Source of the DNA: an uncultured Alphaproteobacteria bacterium | GTDB lineage: Bacteria > Pseudomonadota > Alphaproteobacteria > Rs-D84 | Assembly (NCBI GenBank): GCA_937903135.1 | Contig: CALDAH010000008.1 | Span: 1,515-65,514, forward strand | Direction of reading: 5' to 3' | Length of the DNA stretch: 64,000 nucleotides | Shown: positions 19,653 to 58,274 of the stretch, piece after piece | Layout: each line of letters opens with the position of its first letter | How positions within the stretch are numbered: position 1 is the first letter of the stretch | Made by a program: the position numbers and the translations under genes | Notes under the pieces: model-generated | What the model saw: the letters and a program-made list of their open reading frames with translations, nothing else | What the model was told of the DNA's origin: nothing | The model's database searches: none

Positions 19653-20927
19653 TTATTTTTTACCCCATCCCAGCGCGTTGCCGATTTTGCCGCCCCAGTT
19701 TTTAGTATTGTTCCATAATTTTTTTGTATCACCGATAGATTTGTTATACAGCCCCGTCATATCCCCGCCGATATATTGGTTAAGCTGATCGCGGGTAAGT
19801 TTAAATATACGAAGCATTAAATAAAACGTCAGTATCGCCGATATCCACATAATAGAATGCCCCCCGAAACCCATCGGGGTATTTGCGACCGTCGGAACAT
19901 TAGAGTTTGCCATCCCATTCGCAGCGACAACAAATACTTGGCTATTCCATTGAAACAGTGCATAAATCACGGCCAGGTTAATGCATAATATAAACGCGCA
20001 TGCGATCATGGTAATAACCAGCTGCTGGAGTGCTTTGGTTATACCGGAAAATGCCGGCCATACGTCAAACCATTTATCACTGGATTTTACAACGTATGTT
20101 AAAACCTGAAACGGGTAGAGTATAAGTGCCATCCCAAGGTTAAATATACCCTGAATAATTAACAGTGCCATAAACAGATTACTTGCGATGAATGTTATAA
20201 TTAGTAATATTCCGGTAACCAGGCTCATAAAATCCTGGCCGCCGTGCGGGATCAGGGTAATCAGCCCGCGCAGGCCATTGGTTAAAAAATCAAATCCGCG
20301 TTTAACCACCTGGTTATTCGCGCGTGATAAATCCGCGACCGGCCGGATTAGGAATTCACACGACGAAGGTGATATCCATCCATGGCGAATAACATCGGCC
20401 GGACACTCTATTTTTTCAATCCCGACGCCCGTCCCGTTAATCGTTTCGGTAATTGCGTGCGTATAAATCGCGCCGAATTGCAAAAACGGATTAACCAGCC
20501 ATTCGGTTACAAACACGGGCCTTATCTGCAGTAATATAACGGCCGCGACCAGGGCACGAATAACAGGCTTCATAACATTATTTTGAATTATTCCAAAACC
20601 GCTGACGTTGCCGTTATAAAAATCCCCGCCGCCCGATATGCCGAACAGCGACGACCACTGCTTTGGAAAATACATCTTTAAAATACCGGTCGCCAGTGAT
20701 ACGGCCAAAAATCCCCAGACCAGAACATAAATAATCCCCGTCCCTTTCCCAACAAAGAAATCATAACAACCGGTCGCGACCAGCATAAACGCATCTAAAA
20801 CAATCGGGACAATTGGTGCGATATTCAGCTTATCAATAATATCCGGCGCGGCCATAGCAGCGGTTGGCATTATGAATATAAATGCAGTAAAGAGTTGTTT
20901 TAAAAATTTTGATTTAAACAATTTCAT
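19653..20927 (-). CDS. Polytopic membrane protein, paralog family member 1 (signal peptide)
   Basis: Signal peptide ...IMPTAAMAAP, loop Cys pair (IEC...SSC), TM cluster and Lys/Gly/Trp-rich tail. Confidence 0.65.
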   Translation of the reverse strand: MKLFKSKFLKQLFTAFIFIMPTAAMAAPDIIDKLNIAPIVPIVLDAFMLVATGCYDFFVGKGTGIIYVLVWGFLAVSLATGILKMYFPKQWSSLFGISGGGDFYNGNVSGFGIIQNNVMKPVIRALVAAVILLQIRPVFVTEWLVNPFLQFGAIYTHAITETINGTGVGIEKIECPADVIRHGWISPSSCEFLIRPVADLSRANNQVVKRGFDFLTNGLRGLITLIPHGGQDFMSLVTGILLIITFIASNLFMALLIIQGIFNLGMALILYPFQVLTYVVKSSDKWFDVWPAFSGITKALQQLVITMIACAFILCINLAVIYALFQWNSQVFVVAANGMANSNVPTVANTPMGFGGHSIMWISAILTFYLMLRIFKLTRDQLNQYIGGDMTGLYNKSIGDTKKLWNNTKNWGGKIGNALGWGKK

Positions 20928-20993: not shown

Positions 20994-22280
20994 ATGAATT
21001 GGTTAAAAAAGTTTTGGATAGTTTTTTTATCATTCCTCCCGTTCGGGGCCGGGGCGGTCGCGCCGTTTGTTGTTGGCGGTATCGCAGGGATTGGTGTTAT
21101 TGCGGGATTTGCAATCTATCGCACGGCTGCGCCTGTAAATATGGCGGATGCGATGAACTTTTTTTCAACATGCTGGACATGTCAGATGTTTTCGGATGTT
21201 ATGGCGACAATGTCGTCGGTATTACCGAATATTTATAATGCAATCGGTCACGTAATAATTCCGTTTGCTGTGATATTAACCGCGATATGGTTCGCCTGGC
21301 GCTTAGCGTCCGGATTTATAAACGGCAAATCCGAAGATGCATGGACACTATCGGGCAGTTTCGGGACGCATCTGATAAAGCTGGCATTTATATCGGCGTT
21401 GCTGGTTGCCCCGCTGCCGCGAATGCTAACGGATATTGTAATTGAACCGGTATTTCACGTCGGGCTGTCTATTAACCGTGCCGTGGCCGGGGACGATAAA
21501 TTTGCCGAATGCGTTCTGGCGACGGCGGTGGCCGATCCTGTGGCCGCATCGGAATACGCCGCGACGTCCGGGGCATATTCGCCAAAACTGCGACATAATC
21601 TGGCGTGCGAACTCGCGACCGTTCATCAGATGACAGGACTTGGCATGACGGCCGGTTGGACCATGCTAAATATGGCGTTTAATTCAGAATACATGCATAA
21701 GATTTTATGGGATATACCGTTTTTTCCAAATATTCCGATTTTCTTTGCCGGGCTATTAATTCTGGTGATATTTTTCTGGGCACTGTTGCCAATCCCGCTG
21801 TATTTCCTAGAGGTATTCATAGAACTCTCTATGGATTTAATAATGCTGCCGCTAATGATGCTATCGTGGTTATTCAAAGACTGGGCGATATTCCCGAACG
21901 GGAAAAAGAATATAGAACAGATTATAAACAACGTTATATCCGCGACACTTGGGATCGCAATAACGGGGATTTTTGTAACATTTGCGATAATGTTCCTAAA
22001 TTCTGTATTCGGGAACTGGAACGGTGCGGGTGCATTGGCGGCGGCGATGGCGCAAAACGATTCGACAATATTAATGGATGGCCTGATGATGCGCAACGAC
22101 AGCGTTATTGCAATTATAATGATGGGGATATTTATCGCCATGTTTATGACGATGATTCCGGCCCTGTCAAAGACTTTATTCAATGTTCAGATATCCGAAA
22201 GCTATTATAAATCGGTTCAAAGTCATGCAAAAATTATGCTCGGAAACCTGAAAAAGTGGTATGCAGCGTTAAAAAAATAA
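20994..22280 (+). CDS. Polytopic membrane protein, paralog family member 5 (divergent)
   Basis: N-terminal CWTCQMFSDVM motif, loop Cys pair (AEC...LAC), then GMTAGWTML. It is separated from member 1 by a 66-bp AT-rich divergent spacer. Confidence 0.65.
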   Translation: MNWLKKFWIVFLSFLPFGAGAVAPFVVGGIAGIGVIAGFAIYRTAAPVNMADAMNFFSTCWTCQMFSDVMATMSSVLPNIYNAIGHVIIPFAVILTAIWFAWRLASGFINGKSEDAWTLSGSFGTHLIKLAFISALLVAPLPRMLTDIVIEPVFHVGLSINRAVAGDDKFAECVLATAVADPVAASEYAATSGAYSPKLRHNLACELATVHQMTGLGMTAGWTMLNMAFNSEYMHKILWDIPFFPNIPIFFAGLLILVIFFWALLPIPLYFLEVFIELSMDLIMLPLMMLSWLFKDWAIFPNGKKNIEQIINNVISATLGIAITGIFVTFAIMFLNSVFGNWNGAGALAAAMAQNDSTILMDGLMMRNDSVIAIIMMGIFIAMFMTMIPALSKTLFNVQISESYYKSVQSHAKIMLGNLKKWYAALKK

Positions 22281-23879: not shown

Positions 23880-24204
23880 AAATATCCCAATAGTATTAAC
23901 GCATATGCGAACCACGCAGCTGTCCTGCGGGTCGCTGTGTGTCCCCGGTTTATGACGGGACTGCTGGTTTAAATTAATTATATTATAGAACTGCCGAGAT
24001 TTTAGCGCAGTTGTTCGCATATCCGATTTATAGCTTTATATTATCTGCTGTGGTGTGTTTTTCCTGTATATATTATATTGTGGCACATAAATATGATTGA
24101 TAGGGTTTCTGCTGCGCGGGATTAATTGGTAAATTTCTAAAATCTTGGCCAATATAATTTTAATATAACAGAGTAATAAAATACAATAAATCAAATTCGT
24201 CATT

Positions 24205-24233
24205 TATGACGAAAGTGCGACGAAAATCACGCA
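24205..24233. repeat. Direct repeat, copy 1 (29 bp perfect; about 43 bp imperfect)
   Basis: TATGACGAAAGTGCGACGAAAATCACGCA is identical to 26566-26594. Similarity continues imperfectly (GGGGTTGATTCTG vs ATGGTTGAATTTTG). Confidence 0.9.
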
Positions 24234-24252
24234 GGGGTTGATTCTGTGGTCG

Positions 24253-25494
24253 TCATTTAATTGATTGTTTAAATAAAGACCAGCCGTGATAATATTTATT
24301 GTTTTCGCACAATCCATCAACTGTCCAATCTTGTTTTTTTTGATGACGATAACAATGTGGATGTTGGAATTTACCACGCCATAAACCTATTTTTTGATTT
24401 ATTGCGTATGATTCTTCTTCTGTATAGGTATATGGTGGATATGTTGAAACCACAGCATAGCCTTCTTTTACCATTTGGCGATTTATTTCAACGCCTTTGC
24501 TATTATAACAAACGGCTAAGCTACGTCCCCATTTTCCATATTTTATCAATTCACAGCTAACTAACCCATTGCCAATAATTTTTTTTACACGTTCTGTTGC
24601 TTCTAATCCACATGCATATTCTTTATTATTTTCATCTAAACACGTTTGTTTTCTTTCAGCAGAATCCATGCCGACTGGGCGAATGACAATAATATCATCA
24701 ATGTGCCACGTATCGCCGTCTGCTATCTTGGATACATTCCCGATAACCCATTTTCGTTTATTATGTTTATTTCGCCACAGCTGAAAATCTTTTACTTTAT
24801 AAAAATCTTTAGGAATATCAAAAGTGGTGTGTTCTTCGCTTGCCAGTTCAATATCTTGATCGTTGATTAAGTTTGATAATTGTGATTTGTCCGTTATCGG
24901 AGCAGGCAATGTGCGCTGATTATTTACATGCATATCATACCTAGATAAATTGGACTTTAATTTACTGTAATGCTTATCAAAAACCCTAATTTCTATGTTG
25001 CTATTATCAAGGCGAATCAGCAGCAGTAAATCACCTGGCTGCGCTAATTTCATAACTTTATTATCGGTACCATAGTATAATCTTTTTTCATTATTTACCG
25101 TTTTTGCGTTGGGATTCCGTCTGGGGCTGTACCAGGTTGACATATGGTTAAATGTTTCTATACCGCTATCGGATATATAATAGTATTTCGCTTTAAATTT
25201 TTTGGATTCTTTTACATCGCCGAGTACAACAACAAATTCCTTTACACCGTATAATTCTCTCATAGTGGACTTGCTTTTGCCACAGTCTGTTTTTGACAGT
25301 TTCTTTAAAGCTAATGAAATATATTCCGTGGGGAATTTGCCGTCCTGAACAACAGCATCTTCCATAACTTGCGTAGATTCATAAGGTGTTTGTATGTCCT
25401 GGCATGCAACTATCCCATATAAGGTTAGTCCGACCCCCACAAAAGCCAAAACAACTAATCTAAGCCGCGTTTTCAGCCAGTTTGAGATTTTCAT
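24253..25494 (-). CDS. Lipoprotein-anchored protein with C-terminal staphylococcal-nuclease (SNase/thermonuclease) domain
   Basis: Lipobox ...LYGIVAC. The C-terminus (KIADGDTWHIDD...RPVGMDSAERKQ...KWGRSLAVC...NRQMVKEGYAVV) follows the SNase pattern DGDT...R..GIDAPE...YGR.L..V...N..LV..G.A. The roughly 230-aa middle region is unassigned. Confidence 0.7.
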   Translation of the reverse strand: MKISNWLKTRLRLVVLAFVGVGLTLYGIVACQDIQTPYESTQVMEDAVVQDGKFPTEYISLALKKLSKTDCGKSKSTMRELYGVKEFVVVLGDVKESKKFKAKYYYISDSGIETFNHMSTWYSPRRNPNAKTVNNEKRLYYGTDNKVMKLAQPGDLLLLIRLDNSNIEIRVFDKHYSKLKSNLSRYDMHVNNQRTLPAPITDKSQLSNLINDQDIELASEEHTTFDIPKDFYKVKDFQLWRNKHNKRKWVIGNVSKIADGDTWHIDDIIVIRPVGMDSAERKQTCLDENNKEYACGLEATERVKKIIGNGLVSCELIKYGKWGRSLAVCYNSKGVEINRQMVKEGYAVVSTYPPYTYTEEESYAINQKIGLWRGKFQHPHCYRHQKKQDWTVDGLCENNKYYHGWSLFKQSIK

Positions 25495-26425
25495 TCACGA
25501 TTCCTGTTTTAAAATCATCATTTACAGGAACAACTTTACAAAGATTATTAAAGGAAAACAATCCTTTTTCGTCCATTTTACGTAAATATTTAATCAGTTG
25601 CTCTGCATTTGCTTGTATGGCTGGAACAATAACCGCATTTCCAAGCTGTCTTATTGCTCGTTCATTTGATACACTTGACATATCAAAAGAATCAGGGAAA
25701 CCCATGATTCGCTTGCCTTCTTTTGCTGTTAAACGACGCCCCATACCGTCAACAATGTAATAATCCCAACAACGGAAGGATTGAGGTGGCATTCCTGTAA
25801 AGCTAGATACCATTGTTCGGGCAATTTTTCTATTTATTGTTTGACATTCAAAAATTTCTTCTAGTGTTTTAGTCAATGGCACCTGAGGAGCAAATTCAAA
25901 CGTACTATCAACTGTATCACCAAGAAAGCCTATGATAAATACTCTTTGACGAACCTGTGGTATATTATGGTCTGTCCCCTTTACTATTTTATAGTTGAAA
26001 GAATAACCAAGTTCCTGTAATGATTCTGATATAATACGAAAACATTCACCATCTTGGGCCGTCAACAGACCTTTGACATTTTCTAAGAAAAAAGCCTTTG
26101 GGCGACGTTGTTTCAATATTTCTAATATATAAAAGAACATTGTTCCTCGTATTTCATCTGCAAACCCCTTTCGCCTTCCCAAGATTGAGAATGATTGACA
26201 TGGAAAACCTGCACACAAAATATCAAAATCGGGAATATCGGCGGGATTTACTGTTGTTATATCTTCGGCCAATCTGTCTGGTGGCATATTAAAGTTGGCT
26301 TGATAAACCTGTCGCGCCCATTTATCTTTATCACAAGCGAATACACATTCGGCCCCAACATTCTCAAATGCAATATGAAAGCCACCTATTCCAGAGAATA
26401 GGTCAATAAATTTGTACTTTTTCAT
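25460..26425 (-). CDS. dcm: DNA (cytosine-5) methyltransferase
   Basis: FIDLFSGIGGF (I), GFPCQSFS (IV), ENVKGL (VI), QVRQRVFIIG (VIII) and QLGNAV (X) motifs. ATG 26425 is preceded by GGAG. The 3' end overlaps the nuclease gene start by 35 nt. Confidence 0.9.
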   Translation of the reverse strand: MKKYKFIDLFSGIGGFHIAFENVGAECVFACDKDKWARQVYQANFNMPPDRLAEDITTVNPADIPDFDILCAGFPCQSFSILGRRKGFADEIRGTMFFYILEILKQRRPKAFFLENVKGLLTAQDGECFRIISESLQELGYSFNYKIVKGTDHNIPQVRQRVFIIGFLGDTVDSTFEFAPQVPLTKTLEEIFECQTINRKIARTMVSSFTGMPPQSFRCWDYYIVDGMGRRLTAKEGKRIMGFPDSFDMSSVSNERAIRQLGNAVIVPAIQANAEQLIKYLRKMDEKGLFSFNNLCKVVPVNDDFKTGIVNENLKLAENAA

Positions 26426-26565
26426 AAAATCTCCATTTTGGATAATAAAAAAACCGACCAAATGGCCGGAAATAAAAAAAAGCGACACACTTGTCGCTTT
26501 GTTGTCTCACATTATATCAGAAAATGGTAAAAAAATCAATATAATATAACGTGCTTATATTATAA

Positions 26566-26697: not shown

Positions 26698-27039
26698 TTA
26701 TTCCCGGGTATATTTTTGTTCGTATCCACTATTGGTTTCCAGGACCAACGTGTTTTTATCGGGCATTGATATATGATATGTTTCTGTAAAATCAATAGTC
26801 TGGCCGTTGCCAATACTTTTGCCCGTCATTAAAAGTGTATTACAATCCGGCTGCGACCATTTTTCATAAACCAACGTGGCCATGTTAATGGATTCGGCCG
26901 AACCATTTTTATGCAGTTCAAATCCCTGGGTTATATTTTCCATTCCGTTTACCGGTGCATGCCATTGGCCGGTTATATCCGGGCAACGATCGCAGGCCGC
27001 CAACAGAGCAAATGATGTAAATAATAGTGCATTTTTCAT
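26698..27039 (-). CDS. Small lipoprotein, lipocalin-like domain
   Basis: Lipobox FALLAAC. The G.W...F.L..NG....N...L.Y..W...L.L.G pattern is typical of lipocalin-like lipoproteins. Confidence 0.55.
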   Translation of the reverse strand: MKNALLFTSFALLAACDRCPDITGQWHAPVNGMENITQGFELHKNGSAESINMATLVYEKWSQPDCNTLLMTGKSIGNGQTIDFTETYHISMPDKNTLVLETNSGYEQKYTRE

Positions 27040-27225: not shown

Positions 27226-27636
27226 ATGCAAAAAATATGGTTATGTGTTTTTATCTCGTGTCTGTTACAGGGGTGTGTAGAACCTGTACGAACAATAGAT
27301 GTCTATAAACTTGAAAAATATAAAGGGTCAGAAGTTCCCGTATGTGTAAATTATCGCCAAAAAGTTAATTTAATAAGAGAAGGCTGGTATGATACAGATG
27401 CGTGTGGAAATGAAACATATATGCCAGCAGAATACGAACCAATAAAAACATCTTGTAATACCAATTTTGTTCGTGTTGTATCTTATGACAAATGTTTGGC
27501 GCAATTGCCGTTACCAATTCATCTGGTTGAGAAAAAAGAAAAAAATATGACAATTTGTTATGATAGAAACAATAAAGTAGAATTGCCTATATTATATTGT
27601 CAGAAAGACAATATACAAATTATGAACCTGTATTAA
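27226..27636 (+). CDS. Small lipoprotein, unknown function
   Basis: Lipobox SCLLQGC; AT-rich 136-codon ORF containing several Cys. Confidence 0.45.
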   Translation: MQKIWLCVFISCLLQGCVEPVRTIDVYKLEKYKGSEVPVCVNYRQKVNLIREGWYDTDACGNETYMPAEYEPIKTSCNTNFVRVVSYDKCLAQLPLPIHLVEKKEKNMTICYDRNNKVELPILYCQKDNIQIMNLY

Positions 27637-27718: not shown

Positions 27719-27792
27719 TGGTTGGGGCGCACGGATTCGAACCATGATAAAGAGAACCAAAATCTCTTGTCCTACCATTAGACGACACCCCA
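27719..27792 (-). tRNA. tRNA-Gln (anticodon UUG)
   Basis: Hand-folded 74-nt cloverleaf: acceptor UGGGGUG/CGCCCCA (U1-A72), D stem GUCU/GGAC, anticodon stem AGAGA/UCUCU with loop UUUUGGU, T arm CAUGG-UUCGAAU-CCGUG, and an encoded CCA. Confidence 0.9.
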
Positions 27793-34540: not shown

Positions 34541-34630
34541 GGATGGGTGGCAGAGCGGTCGAATGCGGCGGTCTTGAAAACCGTTGAGGGCGCAAGTCCT
34601 CCGGGGGTTCGAATCCCTCCCCATCCGCCA
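34541..34630 (+). tRNA. tRNA-Ser (anticodon UGA)
   Basis: 90 nt: acceptor GGAUGGG/CCCAUCC, anticodon loop CUUGAAA, long variable arm, T loop GGUUCGAAUCC, and an encoded CCA. Confidence 0.9.
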
Positions 34631-34637
34631 GTGATAA

Positions 34638-34657
34638 GTATAAGTTCAAACTTATAC
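34638..34657. repeat. Perfect 9-bp-arm palindrome directly 3' of tRNA-Ser
   Basis: GTATAAGTT-CA-AACTTATAC. Confidence 0.8.
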
Positions 34658-34673
34658 GAAATTTATACCAAAA

Positions 34674-34700
34674 ATCCCCGCGTTCCGCGGGGATTTTGTT
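34674..34700 (+). terminator. Rho-independent terminator after tRNA-Ser
   Basis: ATCCCCGCG-TTC-CGCGGGGAT followed by TTTGTT. Confidence 0.65.
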
Positions 34701-34784
34701 ATTGTAGTGACTCCGATAAGCCCGCCATTGCAGCCCAATCCGCCGCATTTATCGGATAACTATATCTTGGCCAATTTCGCAAAG

Positions 34785-35069
34785 TCAGTGTTTTTTGCCA
34801 TTGAAACTATAATCTGTGCCATATCTTGCAGCGTCTTGTTTATGTGCTTCCCAATGGGCTTGCTGGTTTGCAAATACGTGCAGATTAGATGGATTATTAT
34901 TCTGCTTATTGCGGTCTATATGGTGTACAACTTCCCCGGGTCGTAATGGTCTACCAAGCTTAACTTCTGCAATATGCCGATGTACAAGTATTCCGCTGTC
35001 TTTATAGGTTCTATATCCGTTACGATTTACATATGTTTTTGCATTACGTGATGAAAATTTATTTCTCAT
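34785..35069 (-). CDS. HNH endonuclease
   Basis: HRHIAEVKLGRPL..EVVHHIDRNKQNNNPSNLHVF..QQAH (H-N-H pattern); 94 aa. Confidence 0.8.
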   Translation of the reverse strand: MRNKFSSRNAKTYVNRNGYRTYKDSGILVHRHIAEVKLGRPLRPGEVVHHIDRNKQNNNPSNLHVFANQQAHWEAHKQDAARYGTDYSFNGKKH

Positions 35070-35736
35070 TTTCTACCTCCTGATTATCCATCATTTCAGC
35101 AGGTATAAGGTCTAATAAATTACCATTGCAATCGGGATAGTGTTTACACATAATTTCTTTAAAATCATCTTCTACGCCACCATTGAATTCAGCTTTTACT
35201 CTGCGTACTTTTACATCTCCAAACTTAAAACGTTGGCCGCAATGTAAACATTCTACAATCGTATCAGCAGGAAATCCCATTCCATTTGCATAGCATTCAT
35301 CAATGCCATCCTGCCACTCTTTACCAGATAGTTCTTCATGATATTTAGCGTCACTATTCTGTTCAGAATGATTGAAAAATGTTACTTCGCGACCATCCTC
35401 GGTAAAGTTGTGAGACACAAAACTTGTAGAACCATATTCATTACTTTCATGATTTTCTAATATTTGTCGTGCTTGTGTTTGTTCTGCGTCTGGGGCTTTT
35501 ATTAAATCATCCCATTTATTAAAACCGACCAGTTGTGCAATAAGATGTTGAGCATTCCCCAGAGAAAATTCAAACTTTGGATCATCGTCCATAATGCCAT
35601 ATTCAAGGAATATGCCAACAATATCAAAAAATTTAGGTTCGTATTCGTAAATATCGCCTTGTTCTGATAAATGGCGTGTTTTGTAGTCTTTTAACAGGTT
35701 TTTGGCTTGCAGTTTAAAATATTCAATGTTTGTCAT
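35059..35736 (-). CDS. Hypothetical protein with C-terminal zinc-ribbon-like Cys cluster
   Basis: CLHCGQ...CKHYPDCNG. Overlaps the HNH gene start by 11 nt. Confidence 0.5.
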   Translation of the reverse strand: MTNIEYFKLQAKNLLKDYKTRHLSEQGDIYEYEPKFFDIVGIFLEYGIMDDDPKFEFSLGNAQHLIAQLVGFNKWDDLIKAPDAEQTQARQILENHESNEYGSTSFVSHNFTEDGREVTFFNHSEQNSDAKYHEELSGKEWQDGIDECYANGMGFPADTIVECLHCGQRFKFGDVKVRRVKAEFNGGVEDDFKEIMCKHYPDCNGNLLDLIPAEMMDNQEVENEK

Positions 35737-35935
35737 TTTAATATACTCCTTTGTTGCGCAAAATGCGCTTTGCCCAAGTTTATTATCTAAATGAAGAAAT
35801 GCGTTCGTAGTCTATTGGCTTAGATAACAAGCTCGGAGGATTATATTATCTAATTGTTGGATGATGAGATCTTTACACGAACGGGCTAGCTTTCCAACAA
35901 GCATACTTATAGTATAATATAATTTGTGACAAAAA

Positions 35936-37573
35936 TCAAGACTGATAAATCTCTTTCTCCTGTCCCTTAAAATCCGTATGCTTTGCGGCGATGACGAATA
36001 ATGTTTGCAGGTCAACCGCAGGTGCGGCGCCATCCATAATATCGGATACTATTTTGGGTGACAGATATGCCAAGGCCAAGTATTTATAAATAGTTCGCTC
36101 TGCATTATGTTCTGTCTTGGCGATTTGTTGTGCGTTTTGGCCACGTTCAAACATGGATTTATATCGCCAACCGTATGCCAACGCGCGCATCAGTTGCAGA
36201 TTATTTTCTTGTATTGTCATAACTGTACGACCACAGGCCTCATACCGGTTTGTTGAAACGCGATTGTTTATTATGACTTGACGTTCAATGATAATGTGTT
36301 GCCCGTCATTGCTTAGGCATGTATTGGCTGATAAGGTCGCATTACACGTGTTTGTATAGCCCGGTGTTTGGAATTCGCCTGCAATGGGCGCAATGTTGAT
36401 ATAGAAAGTCATGTGGCTGTTATTATACACAGCCCGGCCCAGCAAAGTTTCTAATAACTTGGTACGCGTGTCATAGGTCATATTTTCAAAGTCTGTGGCC
36501 TTCCAGGTCTGGGCAATGTCTGCCGGTATAAGTTGTGACAGATCGCCGTTTAACAGTGCCTGGATTGTGTCGCATGTTATACGTTCTATATCGCCGGCGG
36601 CCAAATATATGCCCGGGCGACAATAGTGACGTACATCAGATTTTTTGGTGGATTTGTTTGTAAACATGTTGCCGGCCATATCAAAGATTTCGTGGTGCAG
36701 CATATACCGCCGATGAAGGCATTGCGATGTTCGGCGATTGTTGTTTTGACTTAACAGTTCTTGCGCCGTGTTAAATATGACCTCTGGGACAATACCTTCA
36801 TGCAGGCCGGGGTATGTTTCATTTGTTTTCTTATTCCTAACCTTGCCGATATATACCGGATTACGCAGCAAGTTGTTCAATGCATGTTTGCAAAATACAG
36901 TGCCACCCATAGTGGCCCCTTTCTGCGTTGTCCATCGTTTGTTTTTTATATTGTTCGTAATACACCAGTGGTGCAAATCGGTCAAAGATTGCAACTCATT
37001 ATATTTTTCAAAAATGCGGCATACTGTGACAGTTTCGGCGGGATTTGGTACTAGTTTCTTGTTTATAACATCGTATCCCAGGGGTGGCACACCGCCTGTC
37101 CAAAATCCCTTGGCCTTACTCGCGCGGATTTTATCACGCACGCGTTCGGCGGATACTTCGCGTTCAAATTGGGCAAATGACAGCAACATATTCAACGTCA
37201 ATTTCCCCATTGATGTTGATGTATCAAAAGCTTGGGTAATTGATACAAAATTGCAATTATGTTGTTCAAATTCCCGCATCATATTATGAAAGTCCATGAT
37301 AGAGCGCGACAGTCGGTCAACCTTGTACACCACAACAACCTGAATCAGCCCATCTGCAATATCTGAAAGCATTTGTTTCAACGCGGGTCGTTCCATCATG
37401 CCGCCGGAAATCCCGCCGTCTGTATATGTTTTATAATATTCCCAACCTTGAAAGGACTGGGACAGAATATAATTCCGGCATGCTTCTTCCTGGTTGTGCA
37501 GCGAGTTAAATTCCAGTTCCAGTCCCTTTTCGGTTGATTTTCGTACATAAATCGCGCATTTAATTTTGGCCAT
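35936..37573 (-). CDS. Large serine recombinase
   Basis: Resolvase catalytic domain (AIYVRKSTEKG, DGGISGG..RPAL, VVVYKVDRLSRS) plus a recombinase and zinc-ribbon-type C-terminal extension; 545 aa. Confidence 0.9.
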   Translation of the reverse strand: MAKIKCAIYVRKSTEKGLELEFNSLHNQEEACRNYILSQSFQGWEYYKTYTDGGISGGMMERPALKQMLSDIADGLIQVVVVYKVDRLSRSIMDFHNMMREFEQHNCNFVSITQAFDTSTSMGKLTLNMLLSFAQFEREVSAERVRDKIRASKAKGFWTGGVPPLGYDVINKKLVPNPAETVTVCRIFEKYNELQSLTDLHHWCITNNIKNKRWTTQKGATMGGTVFCKHALNNLLRNPVYIGKVRNKKTNETYPGLHEGIVPEVIFNTAQELLSQNNNRRTSQCLHRRYMLHHEIFDMAGNMFTNKSTKKSDVRHYCRPGIYLAAGDIERITCDTIQALLNGDLSQLIPADIAQTWKATDFENMTYDTRTKLLETLLGRAVYNNSHMTFYINIAPIAGEFQTPGYTNTCNATLSANTCLSNDGQHIIIERQVIINNRVSTNRYEACGRTVMTIQENNLQLMRALAYGWRYKSMFERGQNAQQIAKTEHNAERTIYKYLALAYLSPKIVSDIMDGAAPAVDLQTLFVIAAKHTDFKGQEKEIYQS

Positions 37574-38001
37574 TTTTGAGCCCCTTATTATTCAATCCAA
37601 AGAAATCTGTGCCGGACACTTTCATGCCGATCATGGCGTATGCGGCGGCAGATAAACTGGGGTATGTTTTGCCGTTGTATTCAAAACGGTTATCGGCAAT
37701 CACACGCAGGGTAAATAATTGCCCCTTATAAGTTTTGCGAATAAGCGTTCCGGGCTTTAATTCGTATTTTACGGGCACTTTTTAAGTATTCATCCGGTGC
37801 CCTGGCATATTTGTTTAGACGGGTAACGTACTTTTATGCCAGGTGACGTTTATACCGCGTGCATTGAATCCGATACCATAACGGCCGAATAAGATTCTTT
37901 GGCGACAATGTCGTCGGATTATGGGTAATTTGCAGCCATAACAGCGGCATTTGCTCTTTTGGCATAGCGCGCAATTCCGCGTAAGTTTCTGGTATTTTCA
38001 T
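37560..38001 (-). pseudogene. DUF2924-like gene disrupted by an in-frame TAA and a frameshift
   Basis: The N-terminal part (ATG 38001; ...LIRPLWYRIQC...) stops at TAA 37836-37834. The C-terminal part (GTLIRKTYKG..FTLRV..FEYNGKTYPSLSAAAYAMIG..SGTDFFGL) lies in another frame from 37778. Confidence 0.55.
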
Positions 38002-38385
38002 AGCGCTTCCTGTGTACTGTTACGCAATGAATGATTATGTACGGCGATAAGTCAAATGAAATAAAATCTGTTTTATAATTTGCAAATCTGCCACATGTAA
38101 TGTAAAATACGACTGAATCCAGTGGGAATTGGGTTCGGGGCCTTCATAAGCCTAGTTTAAATCCGGTGCAGTTTTGCATCGTTATCTGATGTGGTGCAAA
38201 CTGCACTTTTATCAGCCCTGACTATTAATGTCGGGGAGCTGTTGTTATATAACAGGCACGTAGCTAAAAGCAACAGGAATCCAGTGATTTAAACTGATTT
38301 TATGAACTCCCCGACCGTCAATTCTTGTTGGCGGTTTTCTTATTGCCGTTTTCAGATGGATTCCAATAAAGGGAAAGTGGCTATT

Positions 38386-41300
38386 ATGTCCAAACAAATG
38401 ATTATTTATTGGTATACCACAAAGAAGCAGTTCAATGAGATTGAGCCGGGTCAAACTTGGTGTATTGGTGAGGTCGACCCAAATGCTAATAAATATTTTG
38501 GCATGTCCACCGCAAAAGCAGCCGAAACCCGTGTGCGTGAGGAGTTGGGAAAAGTCAAAGACGGTGCACGCATAACCTTTGATGACATTGATGATTTAGA
38601 ATACGATTCCTTTGAATTTCCAAATCCAACCAACAAAGAAAAAGGTATGGATAAAGATATCCATGCAATGTTAAAAACCATTAACTGTAAGCAAATTGCC
38701 ACCGAATGGTTTAACACTACTCCCGATGAAATAAAACGCGTTATAAGCCATTTGATTGACGGAACACCACTTGGAACAAAATACGAATTACGCAAAAGAC
38801 AAGGTGACGCAATCAAAGTATTCAAAAAAGCATTGGATAACAAACAAAAAAAGTTTGGTTTATTTGCAATGCCACGGTTTGGAAAAACGATTTGTTCTTT
38901 TGAAATGATGAATTTGTTATTTGAAAGATTCCCGGACAAAAAATACATATTCTTTATTTCCGCAAAATTGGACGCCGAACAGGCATTGCGAGAGGATTAT
39001 TACAAATTTGACCAAAGTTGTAATTTCAAATTGTGTCTATATGATTCAGATATCAAAGTCACATTAGAGGATTTGCAAAAAAATAAATATCTGTTCTTTG
39101 CAAGCAAACAATGGTTTGACGGTAAAAGTTTGGCCGAAATAAGAAAACGATTCCCGTGTGTAAATCACGATGATTGTGCGGCCGTATTTTTTGATGAGGC
39201 ACACTTTGCTCGTATGACCGATAATGCCCAGGGAACAATACGCTTATTGAATCCATACATGCAAATTGACATTACGGGTACACCGTTCAGATTAAAAACA
39301 AATGAAGATTACGATGACAATAATTCGTATGTTTATAGCGTTTTGGACGAATATGACGATTATGAAAATTCAGATAACAAAGAGGCATTCCGATTAAAGA
39401 ATCCTGAAATGGTTTATATCACACCGAAAAACGAATTCTTTAAAACAGACAGTTCTTTTGGTGAGTTCTTTGACAGTGACGGGTGCCAAGACGCTATCAA
39501 AGAATGGGTTGAAAAAACATTCTATGGTGGGCAATTTAACATAGATGGCAAACCGTTACCAATTACTAACGCCATTGTTGTTTTACCACCACGCCGTAAA
39601 TATTGTGATTTATTTGCCAGTGCAGTTAATGAATTGGTGCGTGCGAATAAATACGCGATTAAATGCACCAAAACCACAACCAAAGATAATGATGACAGAG
39701 ATTACATTCCAGATAACGAACAAAGATTCAAAGAATGGAATCGTATGTGTAAAAATGAACCAAATTGTTTTCATTTGTTGGTGACTATTGGCAAAGGATT
39801 ACAGGCCGTTTCATTTCCTGATTGTCACGCGGTTATTATGTTGAATGATATGACCTCACCAGAACAATATATCCAGGCAGCGTTCCGTAGTAAAACACCA
39901 AATGGTGTCAAAAAAGAGGCATATGTTGTTGATTATAACAAAGGTCGTACATTACAGGTAATTGATACATTCATCAAAAACCATTTGTTGGTTAAGGCAT
40001 GTGATGTAAATTATAAAACAGAATATCAGCGTGCTTTATCGCGTATTCAAATTCGTGACCACACACTTGTTCGCCAAGAATACACATTTGAGGAAATATT
40101 CCAAACATTCATATCAAACTGGAATATAGAAAGAATTACAGACTCTATAGACTTTGATATAGATAAATTGGTTACCAAGATAGATTTAAGTCGGGTTAAA
40201 TTGGCAGATTTACAAAAACCACACCAATTAACGTTACAATTAACAGAACGAGGTGATAATTATGAACAAGTGGCCCTTGATGAACCTGTCCCGAACGCAG
40301 ATGACGGTGGCGAAGTGGCCAAATATTTGGCGCCTGATTGGCTTGAAAAACACATTGAAAAATTGAAAGCAGATCTGATCAGATACGGTTATATCCCATT
40401 TAAAGGTGAGGAATCAGACAGGGTAAAAGACATAAATCCGGATGAAATACAACGCCGTGAATTGCCGGTTGGTAAAGATGATGATACAAAAGAAGTATGG
40501 TCGTATCTTGGGGGTGATGGTGATTGGGATGATATATACATTGATGAATCTGGGTTGTCGGCATCAACCGTTCGTTGGAAATATGTTATAAATAACAGAT
40601 TTGTAAATGTTACAGGCGAGGCTGCACATGGTGACGGTGCCGTTGATATCAAGAAAGCAAAAGCATTTATAAACGCAATTATCCGTTATTTACCTGCGTA
40701 TTTCTTGGTATCTGGTGTTCCAAATGGATTTGATGATTTCAAAGACCGTTTCGGTCGTCAAACCGTTTCTGAAAAGCATAAAGAGCGTCAGTTATTCCGT
40801 GAATTTATGGGAATGGGTATAGATTACCGTTATATCATTGAAATATTAAAAGTATGTGATGCTGGCAGTCGTGAACAAATAATTGCGTATTGTGCGGATA
40901 AAGTTGCCAAATGCTATCAAGACGATAAGTTGATTCCAGAAAATGTTTTGGAATTACTTTGGGTTTACAAAAAAGATGGCAGTCGTCCAGTTCCAAAATT
41001 ACTGGCGGATAAAATGCGTGGCGACAAAAACTACGACATTGTTGTATGCGGTGGTTATTGGTTAACCGATGATACAACAAAAATGTATATCACTGACAGT
41101 TTTGGTGAGGCTAAGGTTATGGAAAAACTGCGTCCAAACTGCCGTGTAATTTATACTAACGATATTTTACAAACCCTTCAAAATGAAAAAGAAACAATCA
41201 TGAAATTCAAAGCGTTCGTCATGAATCCCCCTTACGGCAATCTGCATTTACCGATATTAAAAAAAATGATAGAGGAAATCGTAGAAAATGGTGGCAACGG

Positions 41301-41892
41301 TGTTAGCTTGCAACCGTCTGATTGGACAAAACTTAATGAGTTTAATTTTGGAGCTTGGGAAAAAATAGGAAAAAATATTTGTTCAATTACAACGTTGGAT
41401 GAAAAAACAAAAAATAAGGCGTTTGATGGAACGACTATTCGATCTAATTTATCAATTTTTGTCTTAGATCCCAACGGTGGATGTGAATTGAGTTTTTCTG
41501 ATGTTGAACTGGCTCTTATAAAAAAATTAAGAGCGAAGACAAGTTTACGTTCTATCTATCCAAAAACAAATGGTGCTTATGATTTACCTTTGTGTGGCGA
41601 CTGTGGACATGCCAAAGGTTGGCATATGACAATTTGTGATATGCTGTCCGGAAATCCGTCAGCCAGATTAAGATTTAGAACACAAGAAGAACGTGATAAT
41701 TTTAGAAACTCTTTAGAGTTAGATGCCTATCAATATCTCGTCACTATAGATGGCGGTGCGATACCAGCACATTTACCGTGGTTAGAAGATTATACCCAAC
41801 CATGGACCAATGAACGCTTTTATGAATATTTTGGTATAACGCCTAATGAACAACAAATAATAGAAAAAGTAATTTCTGGTATAAAAGGATAA
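38386..41892 (+). CDS. T5orf172/GIY-YIG-like + SF2 (ResIII/SNF2-like) helicase + NPPY N6-adenine-type methyltransferase fusion protein
   Basis: The N-terminus follows the T5orf172 pattern (IIYWYTT, WCIGEV, DIHAMLK...ATEWF). Helicase motifs are AMPRFGKT (I), FFDEAHFA (II), ITGTPF (III) and QAAFRSKTP (VI). The C-terminus has FKAFVMNPPYG (IV). The start is probably ATG 38386; ORF-track start is 38302. Confidence 0.7.
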   Translation: MSKQMIIYWYTTKKQFNEIEPGQTWCIGEVDPNANKYFGMSTAKAAETRVREELGKVKDGARITFDDIDDLEYDSFEFPNPTNKEKGMDKDIHAMLKTINCKQIATEWFNTTPDEIKRVISHLIDGTPLGTKYELRKRQGDAIKVFKKALDNKQKKFGLFAMPRFGKTICSFEMMNLLFERFPDKKYIFFISAKLDAEQALREDYYKFDQSCNFKLCLYDSDIKVTLEDLQKNKYLFFASKQWFDGKSLAEIRKRFPCVNHDDCAAVFFDEAHFARMTDNAQGTIRLLNPYMQIDITGTPFRLKTNEDYDDNNSYVYSVLDEYDDYENSDNKEAFRLKNPEMVYITPKNEFFKTDSSFGEFFDSDGCQDAIKEWVEKTFYGGQFNIDGKPLPITNAIVVLPPRRKYCDLFASAVNELVRANKYAIKCTKTTTKDNDDRDYIPDNEQRFKEWNRMCKNEPNCFHLLVTIGKGLQAVSFPDCHAVIMLNDMTSPEQYIQAAFRSKTPNGVKKEAYVVDYNKGRTLQVIDTFIKNHLLVKACDVNYKTEYQRALSRIQIRDHTLVRQEYTFEEIFQTFISNWNIERITDSIDFDIDKLVTKIDLSRVKLADLQKPHQLTLQLTERGDNYEQVALDEPVPNADDGGEVAKYLAPDWLEKHIEKLKADLIRYGYIPFKGEESDRVKDINPDEIQRRELPVGKDDDTKEVWSYLGGDGDWDDIYIDESGLSASTVRWKYVINNRFVNVTGEAAHGDGAVDIKKAKAFINAIIRYLPAYFLVSGVPNGFDDFKDRFGRQTVSEKHKERQLFREFMGMGIDYRYIIEILKVCDAGSREQIIAYCADKVAKCYQDDKLIPENVLELLWVYKKDGSRPVPKLLADKMRGDKNYDIVVCGGYWLTDDTTKMYITDSFGEAKVMEKLRPNCRVIYTNDILQTLQNEKETIMKFKAFVMNPPYGNLHLPILKKMIEEIVENGGNGVSLQPSDWTKLNEFNFGAWEKIGKNICSITTLDEKTKNKAFDGTTIRSNLSIFVLDPNGGCELSFSDVELALIKKLRAKTSLRSIYPKTNGAYDLPLCGDCGHAKGWHMTICDMLSGNPSARLRFRTQEERDNFRNSLELDAYQYLVTIDGGAIPAHLPWLEDYTQPWTNERFYEYFGITPNEQQIIEKVISGIKG

Positions 41893-42419
41893 TGACCCGT
41901 AAAAAGCAGCTTTATAATTGTAATAATTCTGCAGATGATCTTGGGTTGACCAAGCAAGAAAGGCAATCTGCAGGTGCCTTTCATACGCCAAGACATCTCG
42001 CAATTGAAATGGCAAAGAAATTATTTCCAAAATATGCCAAATGTAAAACCAAGCAGGAAATAATTGAAAAGTTTGGTCAGGAAGGTATAGATTTTCTAAA
42101 AGATTTCAGATTAATTGATCCTTGTTGTGGTACTGGCAATTTGTTAGCGGCAGCCATGAATATCTATAAATGGATTGATGAAGAAGATATTTACGGGGTT
42201 GATATAGAATATAGAGCAATAGAATTTTGTCTGAAAAAATTTCCACATGGACATTTCCAAGTAGGCGATTGTTTAACAGAAGATATAACTAGTGAAAAGT
42301 TCTGGGAAAATGAACCATGTGGAATGTTTGGACAATTAAAGGCCAGACAATTATCTGCTGTTAAACAGGCATTAAAAAACAAATCTAATAAAGGCAAAAA
42401 AGTAAAAAACACTATTTAA
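41892..42419 (+). CDS. Truncated/partial gamma-class N6-adenine methyltransferase (motifs X, I, II, III only)
   Basis: FHTPRHLAIEM (X), LIDPCCGTGNLL (I), IYGVDIE (II) and VGDCL (III); no NPPY. Its start overlaps the upstream stop (TAATG). Confidence 0.6.
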   Translation: MTRKKQLYNCNNSADDLGLTKQERQSAGAFHTPRHLAIEMAKKLFPKYAKCKTKQEIIEKFGQEGIDFLKDFRLIDPCCGTGNLLAAAMNIYKWIDEEDIYGVDIEYRAIEFCLKKFPHGHFQVGDCLTEDITSEKFWENEPCGMFGQLKARQLSAVKQALKNKSNKGKKVKNTI

Positions 42420-42495
42420 TAAAATATTATCGCCAATAATATTATTTGTTGTTTTCGTGGTTAAACAACTTTGCTGGACGAATTGCTCTGTAGTG

Positions 42496-42711
42496 TTAAT
42501 CCAAATTAAACCATTGTTTGGCGGTTTGGCGCAGATGCGCCGAACCGCCGTTTTCTATGTCATGGGCAAATGCTTCTAATTCGTGTCCCAGGTTATTTGA
42601 CGCCAGTGCACGAAGGCAGGCCAGGACGATATCGCTATTACTGGCATCTGCTGGCAGGGTTATTGTGATATTCGGGTGTTTTGGCATGTTTAGCACCTTT
42701 GTTTGTGACAT
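42496..42711 (-). CDS. Hypothetical small protein
   Basis: 71-codon ORF in the GC-richer segment; no motifs recognised. Confidence 0.3.
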   Translation of the reverse strand: MSQTKVLNMPKHPNITITLPADASNSDIVLACLRALASNNLGHELEAFAHDIENGGSAHLRQTAKQWFNLD

Positions 42712-42750
42712 TACTGCTTACATTTGTGCATAAGTCAAATCAATTATCGC

Positions 42751-43377
42751 TTAAAAGATTTCGCAACGGACTGGGCCGTATTTCGCGCGTGACCATGCGT
42801 ATTTGACGCCATGGGCAAATGCGTCGCATTGGTCTTTGAATGTGCTGGATGGGAATGTCAGTAATTCCGCGCGAAAATCCGTCCACCACGGCCCGGCAAC
42901 AGATGGAAATAACACGATCCCTTCTGCAAGATAAAAGGTTATTCCGTTAAATCTTGTTATCTTATCAGTATCTGCGGGAACGACCTTTACATGCCCATTA
43001 TATTTTGTCACGGTTTTTAGGTGTTGTATTAACTGCGTGCCGGATGAGGCGTCTTCTATAACAACGGACGGATAACCGCATCGTGGGTACTGGGCGGTTG
43101 TCGTGTCAAATAATTCATCAACCTTTTTCACAAGTTCGGGGAAAGAAAGTTTGGCACGAACAACGTTCAAAAGGTAAATTTTTCGGTTGGTTCTGTTCAC
43201 CCCCAATATTACAAACGCGGAATACGCATTATTCGGCCCTGTTTTTGACGCGGTATCACATGCGATGACAAGTTCAGAAAATTGTGGCAAATCACCGTTA
43301 TAATAGTGCAGCCACTCTTCCTTTACCATATTCCCGTCGGCCGGTGTCGGCAATGCGATATGCACGTTTCTGGGCAT
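42751..43377 (-). pseudogene. Phage terminase large subunit, C-terminal nuclease domain only
   Basis: VIACDTASKTG..YSAFVILG...IYLLNV..., VVIEDASSG, KITRF and FPSSTFKDQCDAFAH match the RNase-H-like terminase C-terminal domain. The ATPase domain is absent. Confidence 0.6.
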
Positions 43378-43618
43378 CCGTCAGATGCGACAGGATTATC
43401 GCCGGCACCTCGGTCATGCCGGCCTCCTGGGCCGCCGCCACGCGCCCATGCCCGGCGATGATTTCCAGATTTTCGTCCAGCAGGATCGGATTGATGAACC
43501 CGAATTCTCTGATGGATTCTCGTATCTTCGCCACCTGAGCGCGATTATGCAACTTCGGGTTGTTTTTATACGCCCGAATGTCGGTTAGTTTTATGTTTTG
43601 TATAGTCAAATCTGTCAT
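43298..43618 (-). pseudogene. ParB-like nuclease N-terminal domain fragment
   Basis: IRAYKNNPKLH...IRESIREFGFINPILLD..EIIAGHGRVAAA...QKRAYRIAD. It then runs out of frame into the terminase fragment with an 80-nt overlap. Confidence 0.55.
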
Positions 43619-43648
43619 AGATTCACCTTTTCGTTGTTTGTTTATCTT

Positions 43649-43669
43649 CCCTATAAAATTTTTATAGGG
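43649..43669. promoter_or_regulatory. 21-bp palindrome upstream of the ParB-like fragment
   Basis: CCCTATAAAA-T-TTTTATAGGG, about 30 bp from ATG 43618. Confidence 0.4.
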
Positions 43670-43877
43670 GCCTAACTGTTTAGGGAAAGTTAAAGTTTAC
43701 TCAGGGCGCGCGCCCAGAAACCTATAGACTTTCCATCTTATAAGGCGATCTGAAAGTTTACTCGGGGTGTTCTGTTGGTAATTTAAAGCTAGCTATGGTA
43801 TTTTGGGTAAATAGTGATGGAAAAAAATACATTTTTATGATATAATATTTGGTAAGCTAAACAGGAGGGGGAGAGTT

Positions 43878-44252
43878 ATGTGTCGGGTGCTTTTATCGAT
43901 TAACCCAGAATACGTGGAAAAGATTTTCTCCGGTGAGAAAGAATTTGAATTCCGTAAAAATCGTTGCAAATCCGATGTCGATAAAATGGTTATTTATTGC
44001 ACCGCGCCAGTTATGAAAGTAATTGGGGAGGCGGATATTGTTGAGATACTAGAGGATAGCCCATCCGTTGTATGGAAAAAAACGCAGAATAAATCTGGTG
44101 TTACTAAGGATTTCTATGATTCTTATTATGCGGGGCGCACAAAATCAGTGGCTTATAAATTAGCGAATATTAAAAAATACAAGAGTCCAAAAACTTTAAA
44201 ATCATTTGGTATTGCCTCTGCGCCACAATCATTTGTTTACTTGTCTCGATAA
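43878..44252 (+). CDS. ASCH-domain protein (COG4933-like)
   Basis: LLSINPEYVEKIFSGEKEFEFRK..., MKVIGEADIVEILE..P..VW and SAPQSFVYL follow the stand-alone ASCH pattern. RBS GGAGGGGGAG. Confidence 0.75.
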   Translation: MCRVLLSINPEYVEKIFSGEKEFEFRKNRCKSDVDKMVIYCTAPVMKVIGEADIVEILEDSPSVVWKKTQNKSGVTKDFYDSYYAGRTKSVAYKLANIKKYKSPKTLKSFGIASAPQSFVYLSR

Positions 44253-44320
44253 TTTTTATTTTACCCCTTGATTTTGGCAGCTTTTTTATTAAATACTATC
44301 TGTAATAGGATTTTATCTAT

Positions 44321-45829: not shown

Positions 45830-45833
45830 ATAT

Positions 45834-46889: not shown

Positions 46890-46904
46890 GGCTGCCCCCA
46901 AAAT

Positions 46905-57534: not shown

Positions 57535-58274
57535 TGACGCGATACAAAGTAATTCTTGAATACGATGGCGCGGGGCTGATCGGGTGGCAGGAAAACCGCC
57601 AAGGGCCATCGGTTCAGTCTATTCTAAAAGATGCGATTTTTGCGTTCTGCGGTCAGCGACCCGATGTTGTTGGCGCGGGCCGAACCGATGCCGGGGTGCA
57701 TGCCGTTGCGATGGTTGCGCATTTTGATCTGGATAATAACGCGTCCGCTGAAACCGTAATGCGGGCACTGAATTTCTATCTGGTCGGGCAGCCGGTTTCT
57801 GTATTGCAATGCAGTATCGCGTCGGATGATTTTAACGCGCGTTTTTCATGTATTGGCCGGGCATATAAATATGTGGTAAAAAACCGTCCGGCGCGTCCGG
57901 TGCTGGATGATAAATCATGGTGGATTCCGCGCCCGCTGAATATATCTGCGATGCGCAGCGCGGCGGAAAAACTGGTCGGGCAGCATGATTTTACCAGTTT
58001 TCGTGCCGCCCAGTGCCAGGCAAAAAGTCCCATAAAAACATTGGATGTTTGCACGATTACGCAAAACGGGGATGATATTATTTTTGAATTCTATGCCCGT
58101 TCATTCCTGCACCACCAGGTTCGTAATATGGTCGGAACGCTGGTCGCAATCGGTCAGGGAAAACCGTATGATATAGATGCGGTCTTTGCCGCCGCGGCAC
58201 GCAGTGCGGCCGGACCAACCGCGCCTGCGGGTGGTTTGTTTTTCATGCGCGCGGATTATGCCAACGACGATTAA
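57534..58274 (+). CDS. truA: tRNA pseudouridine(38-40) synthase
   Basis: GAGRTDAGVHA catalytic motif, and FLHHQVRNMVG. Confidence 0.9.
   Translation: MTRYKVILEYDGAGLIGWQENRQGPSVQSILKDAIFAFCGQRPDVVGAGRTDAGVHAVAMVAHFDLDNNASAETVMRALNFYLVGQPVSVLQCSIASDDFNARFSCIGRAYKYVVKNRPARPVLDDKSWWIPRPLNISAMRSAAEKLVGQHDFTSFRAAQCQAKSPIKTLDVCTITQNGDDIIFEFYARSFLHHQVRNMVGTLVAIGQGKPYDIDAVFAAAARSAAGPTAPAGGLFFMRADYANDD

Follow-up and report, generated by a model that had tools for sequence, protein, structure and literature searches.

To our knowledge, all described restriction enzymes are cytoplasmic and draw their catalytic fold from a known set (PD-(D/E)XK, HNH, GIY-YIG, PLD and half-pipe). A cytoplasmic location is generally assumed, as these enzymes meet phage DNA in that compartment and act poorly on single-stranded transforming DNA. 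Outside the cytoplasm, self and non-self DNA can also be told apart. In Campylobacter jejuni a methyl mark, placed by CtsM at RAATTY, discriminates DNA before it reaches the cytoplasm through methylation-dependent uptake (PMC8468864), and the HXS system defends against phage in the periplasm, at the point where DNA enters (PMC13128918). Here we describe a two-gene locus in a 64,000-nucleotide stretch of DNA (the window; contig CALDAH010000008.1, positions 1,515 to 65,514) from an uncultured alphaproteobacterium. The locus, at window positions 24253-26425 on the minus strand, encodes a C5 cytosine DNA methyltransferase and a modular nuclease that is predicted to be exported. We judge it somewhat probable that it is a mobile restriction-modification-like cassette, with an exported, methylation-sensitive and sequence-directed nuclease that would cut foreign double-stranded DNA (dsDNA) in the periplasm.

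Two restriction enzymes invite comparison. BfiI, like the window protein, combines a B3-like recognition pseudobarrel with a tethered, non-specific module from an exported nuclease family and is paired with methyltransferases; it is also the top fold match of the window protein's N-terminal domain (N-domain), and it shares its Nuc-like PLD (phospholipase D) domain with two relatives of that protein, P0033 and P0037. The domain order is nevertheless reversed, the B3-like domain coming first in the window family, and the window protein carries a staphylococcal nuclease (SNase) domain rather than a PLD domain. Furthermore, BfiI is cytoplasmic whereas members of the window family have a signal peptide, and the two show no sequence-level similarity. 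EcoRII resembles the window protein in its layout, with a B3-like domain at the N-terminus, a nuclease domain after it and a C5 methyltransferase partner upstream. It differs in that the window protein has an SNase rather than a PD-(D/E)XK domain, possesses a signal peptide and does not match Pfam EcoRII-N; in addition, the N-domain of EcoRII is an autoinhibitory effector, whereas that of the window protein is its only candidate recognition module.

The remaining points of comparison lie among exported nucleases and envelope-level discrimination. Staphylococcal nuclease and the four-cysteine SNase clade of Proteobacteria share with the window protein the fold, the Ca2+-binding and catalytic residues and export, which is predicted for the window protein. 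These known SNases are single-domain and non-specific, and they are not linked to methyltransferases (such a gene stands at 2 of 109 control loci, below), whereas the window family adds a recognition domain and a methyltransferase. In C. jejuni, methylated DNA is positively selected and no such nuclease is known to be involved, whereas the window system would destroy unmethylated DNA. The components of HXS are unrelated (an rSAM-matured peptide effector), and HXS uses no methylation self-marking. Functionally, the cassette would be a Type II, IIS-like restriction-modification system: methyltransferase linkage and a co-varying recognition module, the genetic hallmarks of such systems, are both found. 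Two usual Type II features are missing, namely a cytoplasmic nuclease (a signal or lipobox is conserved in 27/27 representatives) and one of the catalytic folds so far known in restriction enzymes, the domain in the window being an SNase.

The two genes and the parts of the nuclease are as follows.

25460..26425, minus strand: C5 cytosine DNA methyltransferase, 321 amino acids (aa), without signal peptide (PF00145, TIGR00675)
24253..25494, minus strand: modular nuclease, 413 aa, predicted to be exported, made up of signal/lipobox, B3-like domain, linker, SNase domain and Cys-rich tail
25402..25494, minus strand: lipoprotein-type signal peptide, residues 1-31, with an n-region of net charge +5, a 20-residue uncharged core, lipobox IVAC and Cys31 (pattern match)
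24970..25323, minus strand: B3-like DNA-binding pseudobarrel, presumed recognition module, residues ~58-175 (AlphaFold2 model, Foldseek)
24790..24936, minus strand: disordered linker joining the recognition domain to the cleavage domain, residues 187-235 (pLDDT <50 in the full-length model)
24370..24747, minus strand: SNase (thermonuclease) domain, residues ~250-375, catalytic and Ca2+-binding residues complete, four cysteines conserved (PF00565)
24256..24369, minus strand: tail HPHC..C with a third cysteine pair, residues 376-413

The 321-aa protein matches PF00145 DNA_methylase (E = 8.6e-77; 259 bits against a cut-off of 22) and TIGR00675 dcm (E = 3e-77; 260 bits against a cut-off of 100.65), and its translation shows motifs I (FSGIGG), IV (PCQ), VI (ENV), VIII (QVRQR), IX and X (GNAV). 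Its gene shares 35 nt (25460-25494) with the nuclease gene. An earlier note on this DNA, made from the sequence alone, had described a C5 methyltransferase with canonical motifs that overlaps a 413-aa partner by 35 nt, and this description holds. The enzyme is not an orthologue of E. coli Dcm (CCWGG), as the profile PRK10458 gave 150 bits against a cut-off of 710. "Dcm" is here to be read as C5 methyltransferase, with a specificity that is not assignable from the nearest solved relative, M.HhaI, as that match (E = 9e-60) covers the catalytic part only.

To collect relatives of the nuclease, 1.84 billion representatives were searched exhaustively with a profile, which yielded ~30 full-length clusters at 50% identity, with thousands of SNase-only proteins scoring below them. 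The family is thus rare, and it is so far confined to uncultured, mostly gut Alphaproteobacteria, and its members carry no functional annotation beyond "phospholipase D family protein". Genomic context was compared at 14 distinct full-length loci, the window included. A methyltransferase gene was directly adjacent in 13 of the 14, upstream and on the same strand in all but one of these 13, and the partners belonged to three families.

C5 methyltransferase (PF00145): window, P0002, P0003, P0004, L012, P0018, P0033
EcoRI-like N6-adenine methyltransferase (PF13651): P0005, P0006/L014/L015, L013, L017, P0037
N6_N4 methyltransferase (PF01555), convergent: P0027

As a control, the three methyltransferase families were counted within the fetched flanks of SNase-only genes. 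Such a methyltransferase was present at none of 30 genome loci and at 2 of 79 viral loci (2/109 overall). The P0018 locus also carries an HTH_3 gene, placed where a controller protein would be encoded. The RAATTY motif of CtsM contains the EcoRI site GAATTC, and the family loci in the second line above use an EcoRI-like methyltransferase. Judged from gene content, the combination of a single nuclease scaffold with unrelated methyltransferase classes is a signature of restriction-modification systems, and the co-occurrence survey bears out the pairing of this kind that had been proposed for the window. Orphan methyltransferases are common, and it could be argued that an orphan Dcm-type enzyme merely happens to lie beside an unrelated envelope nuclease. 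Such a meaningless adjacency is very improbable in view of these counts and of the three methyltransferase families involved; moreover, the B3-like domain co-varies with the methyltransferase, the genes overlap or are tightly spaced on one strand, and a single pair of repeats brackets both (see below).

The nuclease had been credited with an unassigned region of about 230 aa, in which a DNA-recognition domain was to be sought. The structural model points to such a domain, but the region is not a single unit and resolves into a tether of ~25 aa, the B3-like domain and the disordered linker. The AlphaFold2 model of residues 52-185, based on a 25-sequence alignment, reached a pLDDT of 89.7 and a pTM of 0.84. 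When the isolated domain was compared with the PDB using Foldseek, the top 16 matches were all B3-like pseudobarrels (prob 0.72-1.0, TMq 0.43-0.55), and three restriction enzymes were among them. The matches included BfiI (E = 4e-4), the DNA-bound C-terminal domain of BfiI, the N-domain of LlaJI.R1, EcoRII (E = 0.011, TMq 0.53) and the plant ARF and LEC2 B3 domains. At the sequence level, no credible assignment of the N-domain was obtained from Pfam (whole protein and 25 isolated N-domains), NCBIfam, PADLOC, or phmmer and hmmsearch comparisons with the PDB (6- and 25-sequence profiles), and the N-domain alignment contains no conserved stretch of 7-10 columns. The N-domain is a new sequence family within the B3-like fold.

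Between the window and P0002/P0003, identities were 88/84% for the methyltransferase, 72/69% for the B3-like domain and 56/52% for the SNase domain, and between methyltransferase groups the B3-like domains were 21-28% and the SNase domains 47-51% identical. P0004 and P0033, which come from one metagenome, have methyltransferases that are 90% and B3-like domains that are 87% identical, yet the nuclease is an SNase in the former and PLDc_2 (PF13091) in the latter. The second PLD member, P0037, carries the B3-like domain of the EcoRI-like-methyltransferase group and has an EcoRI-like methyltransferase upstream. On the basis of P0004/P0033 and P0037, recognition and modification therefore appear to travel together, with an exchangeable cleavage module, as in BfiI and Type IIS enzymes at large. 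These comparisons are indirect evidence that the putative recognition module is matched to its methyltransferase, in that divergence of the B3-like domain tracks methyltransferase identity and class whereas that of the nuclease domain does not. Evolutionary rates within the cassette are asymmetric: when the window is set against L002/L005, its methyltransferase is 84-88% identical to those of P0002/P0003 and its nuclease only 48-52%, with the greatest divergence in the SNase domain and the linker.

A word-based homologue search independently found P0007, in which an N-domain 27-33% identical to those of the nuclease family is joined to a cytoplasmic-type PD-(D/E)XK EcoRII-C domain; its gene is preceded by C5 methyltransferase and Vsr genes. 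Another relative, P0065 (216 aa), consists of a signal peptide and a B3-like domain with no nuclease domain and ends in a hydrophobic, transmembrane-like segment. It would be an envelope-anchored DNA-binding module without a cleavage module.

The C-terminal domain of the window protein is an SNase by several measures. Its residues 272-373 match PF00565 (E = 8e-9; 36.3 bits, cut-off 21), it matches staphylococcal nuclease in a profile comparison with the PDB (E = 5e-9), and Foldseek aligned it to staphylococcal nuclease with prob 1.0 and TMt 0.70-0.77. Foldseek matches of the full-length model were likewise dominated by staphylococcal nuclease entries. Residues D261, R272, D277, E280 and R324 correspond to the catalytic and Ca2+-binding residues D21, R35, D40, E43 and R87 of staphylococcal nuclease and are invariant in the family. 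Among the 151 nearest SNase relatives, 145 have this DRDER pentad and 150 the four cysteines, which most likely form two disulfides. The tail, with consensus HPHC(Y/F)RH..K.DW.V.GLC..NK.Y.GW, is confined to the closest clade and invariant in the 6 closest members; both of its cysteines occur in 7 of the 151 relatives and one of the two in 5 more. The linker that precedes the SNase domain differs in length and sequence across the family. The nuclease was not matched by the restriction-enzyme models of PADLOC.

At the N-terminus, the window protein satisfies the lipobox pattern [LVI][ASTVI][GAS]C, with lipidation predicted at Cys31, and this residue precedes the low-confidence tether. The lipoprotein signal and C-terminal SNase domain reported in the earlier note were thus both recovered, the latter with intact active-site residues. 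The hydrophobic core is preceded in each of the 27 representatives by a segment with more positive charge than the 15 residues that follow the core, and an N-in/C-out topology is therefore predicted by the positive-inside rule. Small residues occupy positions -3/-1 where the core ends in 26 of the 27 (for example CFA↓FD, VYA↓LE and VQA↓ES). In the window clade a lipobox takes the place of such a site, and more distant members have signal-peptidase-I-type sites rather than a lipobox. These N-terminal signals are retained in proteins that are otherwise only 25-35% identical, and a signal peptide is predicted in all SNase and PLD members. P0007, with its EcoRII-C domain, has none. The rule-based topology check agreed with the exported N-terminus that had been proposed. 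A translation start at Met44, which would drop the signal, was rejected since every homologue keeps the N-terminal signal, and a Tat signal was rejected for want of a twin-arginine motif.

The ancestry of the cleavage modules is in keeping with export. The SNase module falls in the four-cysteine clade, whose stand-alone members mostly start with a hydrophobic N-terminus (101 of 117), and a related metagenome-assembled genome (MAG) encodes a 207-aa SNase-only lipoprotein (L016). The nearest solved relatives of the PLD module of P0033 are Nuc of pKM101 (1byr, E = 1.5e-18) and NucT of Helicobacter pylori (6ehi, E = 2.8e-9). Both of these proteins reside in the envelope, Nuc in the periplasm, and NucT has a link to natural transformation. 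They bear on the PLD variants alone and differ from these in having neither a recognition domain nor a methyltransferase partner. As judged from these relationships, both cleavage modules derive from exported nuclease families. SNase requires millimolar Ca2+, which is present in the envelope and absent from the cytoplasm.

The N-terminal segment might instead be an uncleaved anchor that holds the B3-SNase protein on the cytoplasmic face of the membrane, where it would cut unmethylated incoming DNA while the methyltransferase protects the chromosome. This arrangement, an alternative already raised in the earlier note, would give a simple reason for the constant presence of the methyltransferase. 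It is countered by the N-in/C-out charge pattern of all 27 representatives, by the signal-peptidase-type sites in 26 of them and the lipobox of the window clade, and by the four conserved cysteines and the signal-bearing SNase clade to which the domain belongs. Furthermore, the Ca2+ requirement of SNase exceeds cytoplasmic levels, and the sister protein with the EcoRII-C domain lacks a hydrophobic segment altogether. We consider a cytoplasm-facing anchor improbable.

The favoured reading, an exported site-directed nuclease, can be set out as follows. The methyltransferase, which has no signal peptide and needs S-adenosylmethionine, would therefore work in the cytoplasm and mark a specific site that contains cytosine in the cell's own DNA. 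The nuclease precursor would leave the cytoplasm through Sec, receive a lipid at Cys31 and remain tethered in the periplasm. There, the B3-like domain would bind the methyltransferase's site on dsDNA when this is unmethylated, and the non-specific, Ca2+-dependent SNase, on its flexible linker of ~50 residues, would cut nearby in Type IIS fashion. The substrate would be foreign dsDNA in the periplasm, either incoming DNA before ComEC makes single strands of it or phage DNA exposed at entry. Transforming DNA would be the most natural substrate, as it is duplex and donor-methylated only while periplasmic, with phage DNA as the second candidate; kin DNA, and that of the element itself, would be spared through its methyl mark. 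What the comparisons show is the gene pair with its folds and intact active site, the conserved signal peptides, the methyltransferase linkage and its co-variation with the B3-like domain, the module swapping and the mobility; we infer that the protein is exported and lipidated, that methylation blocks its binding, how it cuts and what it targets.

Several points weigh against this scheme. The case for export rests on rule-based features and their conservation. The similarity of the N-domain to the B3 fold is moderate (TM ~0.5), and at the sequence level neither EcoRII-N nor any other Pfam family matches it. One family member, P0014, lacks a methyltransferase gene next to it; the C5 methyltransferase at its locus lies 2.6 kb downstream. 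A nuclease that never meets the chromosome does not obviously need a self-protecting methyltransferase, and the scheme requires either regular periplasmic encounters with methylated kin or element DNA or a precursor that is hazardous while still unexported. On the usual view phage DNA traverses the periplasm in a conduit, and conjugative DNA enters single-stranded; therefore, transforming DNA may be the only accessible substrate. The presence of comEC in the window had been taken as a hint of DNA uptake, but the gene (58243-60174, minus strand) is 32 kb from the cassette and there is no evidence of linkage. It was rejected as a cassette-linked gene on account of this distance, and competence of the uncultured hosts is presumed only as a route for the substrate.

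Two-partner-secretion genes (encoding a TPS/filamentous-haemagglutinin-type protein and a ShlB-type transporter) adjoin the cassette at L005/L006 (1-3707) and L010 (1874-7701). At these two unrelated loci their presence may be a coincidence or reflect a shared island. Such neighbours are also what might be expected if the nuclease were secreted against competitor or environmental DNA (biofilm extracellular DNA, nucleotides), with the methyltransferase sparing DNA released by the producer. MAGs of relatives include genomes of ~1 Mb, and stand-alone exported SNases of the clade are common, both of which fit an antagonistic or scavenging role. For bulk digestion, however, a recognition domain matched to the methyltransferase would be counter-productive, and the clade's stand-alone SNases manage without a methyltransferase, as the control counts show. 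The protein also lacks any receptor-binding or translocation domain that would take it into other cells, and in the window it is predicted to be lipid-anchored rather than released. A secreted nuclease of this kind is, in our estimate, quite unlikely.

At the P0014 locus (L048; 924-1475 and 5344-6393, both minus strand), a second stand-alone SNase gene lies divergently upstream. The downstream C5 methyltransferase at this locus adjoins an Ntox44/Mu_F-like gene.

The cassette in the window is delimited by the following signals and repeats.

26511..26539, minus strand: promoter-like site TTGATT-17-TATAAT with TG, 5′ of the methyltransferase gene (consensus scan, 10/12 matches)
24196..24213, minus strand: terminator-like hairpin and T-run, 40 nt past the nuclease stop codon
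26566..26602, unstranded: direct repeat, left copy, 37 nt, 35/37 identical to the other copy
24205..24241, unstranded: direct repeat, right copy, 37 nt, 35/37 identical to the other copy

GGAG is found 7 nt 5′ of the methyltransferase ATG. The nuclease ATG has its ribosome-binding site, AGGA, at the same distance of 7 nt and within the methyltransferase gene. Together with the promoter-like and terminator-like signals, these sites would fit a two-gene operon. The operon is part of a low-GC island, whose GC content is 0.30-0.39 as against ~0.46 in its surroundings. Because homologues share the same architecture, the ends carry promoter-like and terminator-like signals and the pair lies in a low-GC island, it is not a chance pair of open reading frames (ORFs). 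The contig is present in mouse-gut metagenomes. In a search for transcription, two faecal libraries labelled "FL-cDNA", which possibly contain DNA, yielded only low-depth fragments of the locus. The low-GC island also carries a gene for a lipocalin-like lipoprotein (26698-27039, minus strand; PF12702, E = 1e-30) and a 136-aa lipoprotein-like ORF without a family match (27226-27636, plus strand), and a tRNA-Gln gene (27719-27792, minus strand) marks its edge.

The 37-nt repeats exactly bracket the methyltransferase-nuclease operon, and a 29-nt core of the repeat occurs exactly twice in the window, where none would be expected. The repeat was not found in related loci, nor were comparable flanking repeats present at four other loci, and it was rejected as a conserved cassette end since related loci do not have it in common. 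This same absence is the reason for reading it as a target duplication, which probably arose by insertion of a 2.36-kb cassette. Joints of an empty site, from which the cassette would have been excised between the repeats, were not found in four mouse-gut runs. The cassettes of relatives lie at the end of P2-like prophages or next to recombinases. Accessory genes are frequently located at the late-gene end of P2-like prophages. At several of the loci L001-L008 and L013, the cassette is just past the P2-like tail/late-gene end (gpU, gpX, gpD, tape measure; small, conserved ORFs of 74, 134, 69 and 80 aa).

This mobility would suit a safeguarded effector, a nuclease parked in the periplasm that acts when the inner membrane is breached by phage holins or by damage and then degrades unmethylated phage DNA while methylated host DNA is spared, or else an addiction module that acts on loss of the cassette. 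The probable 37-nt target duplication and the prophage-end locations are in keeping with such a role, which would also explain together why a signal peptide is present and why linkage to a methyltransferase is so strict. Nevertheless, the locus offers no sensor or trigger component, phage DNA is mostly packaged once holins act, and export blocks the access to the chromosome that post-segregational killing needs. An effector of this type is unlikely.

Other features of the window lie apart from the cassette. The comEC homologue (643 aa) matches Competence PF03772 and DUF4131, with no metallo-beta-lactamase domain match listed at E up to 1e-5. A second low-GC island (34541-46901) follows tRNA-Ser (34541-34630) and contains a large serine recombinase (35936-37573), a 1196-aa ResIII-helicase protein (38302-41892), a 502-aa ORF without assignment and a Fic-domain protein (45834-46901); it is probably an integrated element with defence genes. 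A second C5 DNA methyltransferase of 447 aa is encoded at 51879-53222 on the plus strand (PF00145, E = 5e-84). Between 15674 and 22280 are five consecutive large ORFs (400-497 aa) without a Pfam match, at least two of which (19653-20927 and 20994-22280) have a signal-like N-terminus and multiple hydrophobic segments.

Two comprehensive reviews of restriction-modification mention neither the periplasm nor signal peptides, and a targeted literature search found no exported or SNase-based restriction enzyme. The cassette may represent the first restriction-modification system with an extracytoplasmic nuclease, a periplasmic, lipid-anchored and site-directed SNase acting against unmethylated dsDNA, perhaps including phage DNA as it enters. 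On this proposal, which we hold to be a serious possibility but short of probable, the system could discriminate kin DNA during uptake, SNase would be the sixth restriction fold, and SNase and PLD modules would be swapped on a constant methyltransferase-B3 chassis. If true, the discrimination of self from non-self by a methyl mark can be relocated to the envelope, and the SNase fold joins the catalytic repertoire of restriction systems. Two cassettes that differ in nothing but the nuclease, SNase in one and PLD in the other, are a natural experiment on how modular enzymes evolve, and the protein may offer a small, Ca2+-switchable scaffold for programmable nucleases. The locus bears on the question of how bacteria discriminate DNA before uptake, for which it provides a concrete candidate protein.

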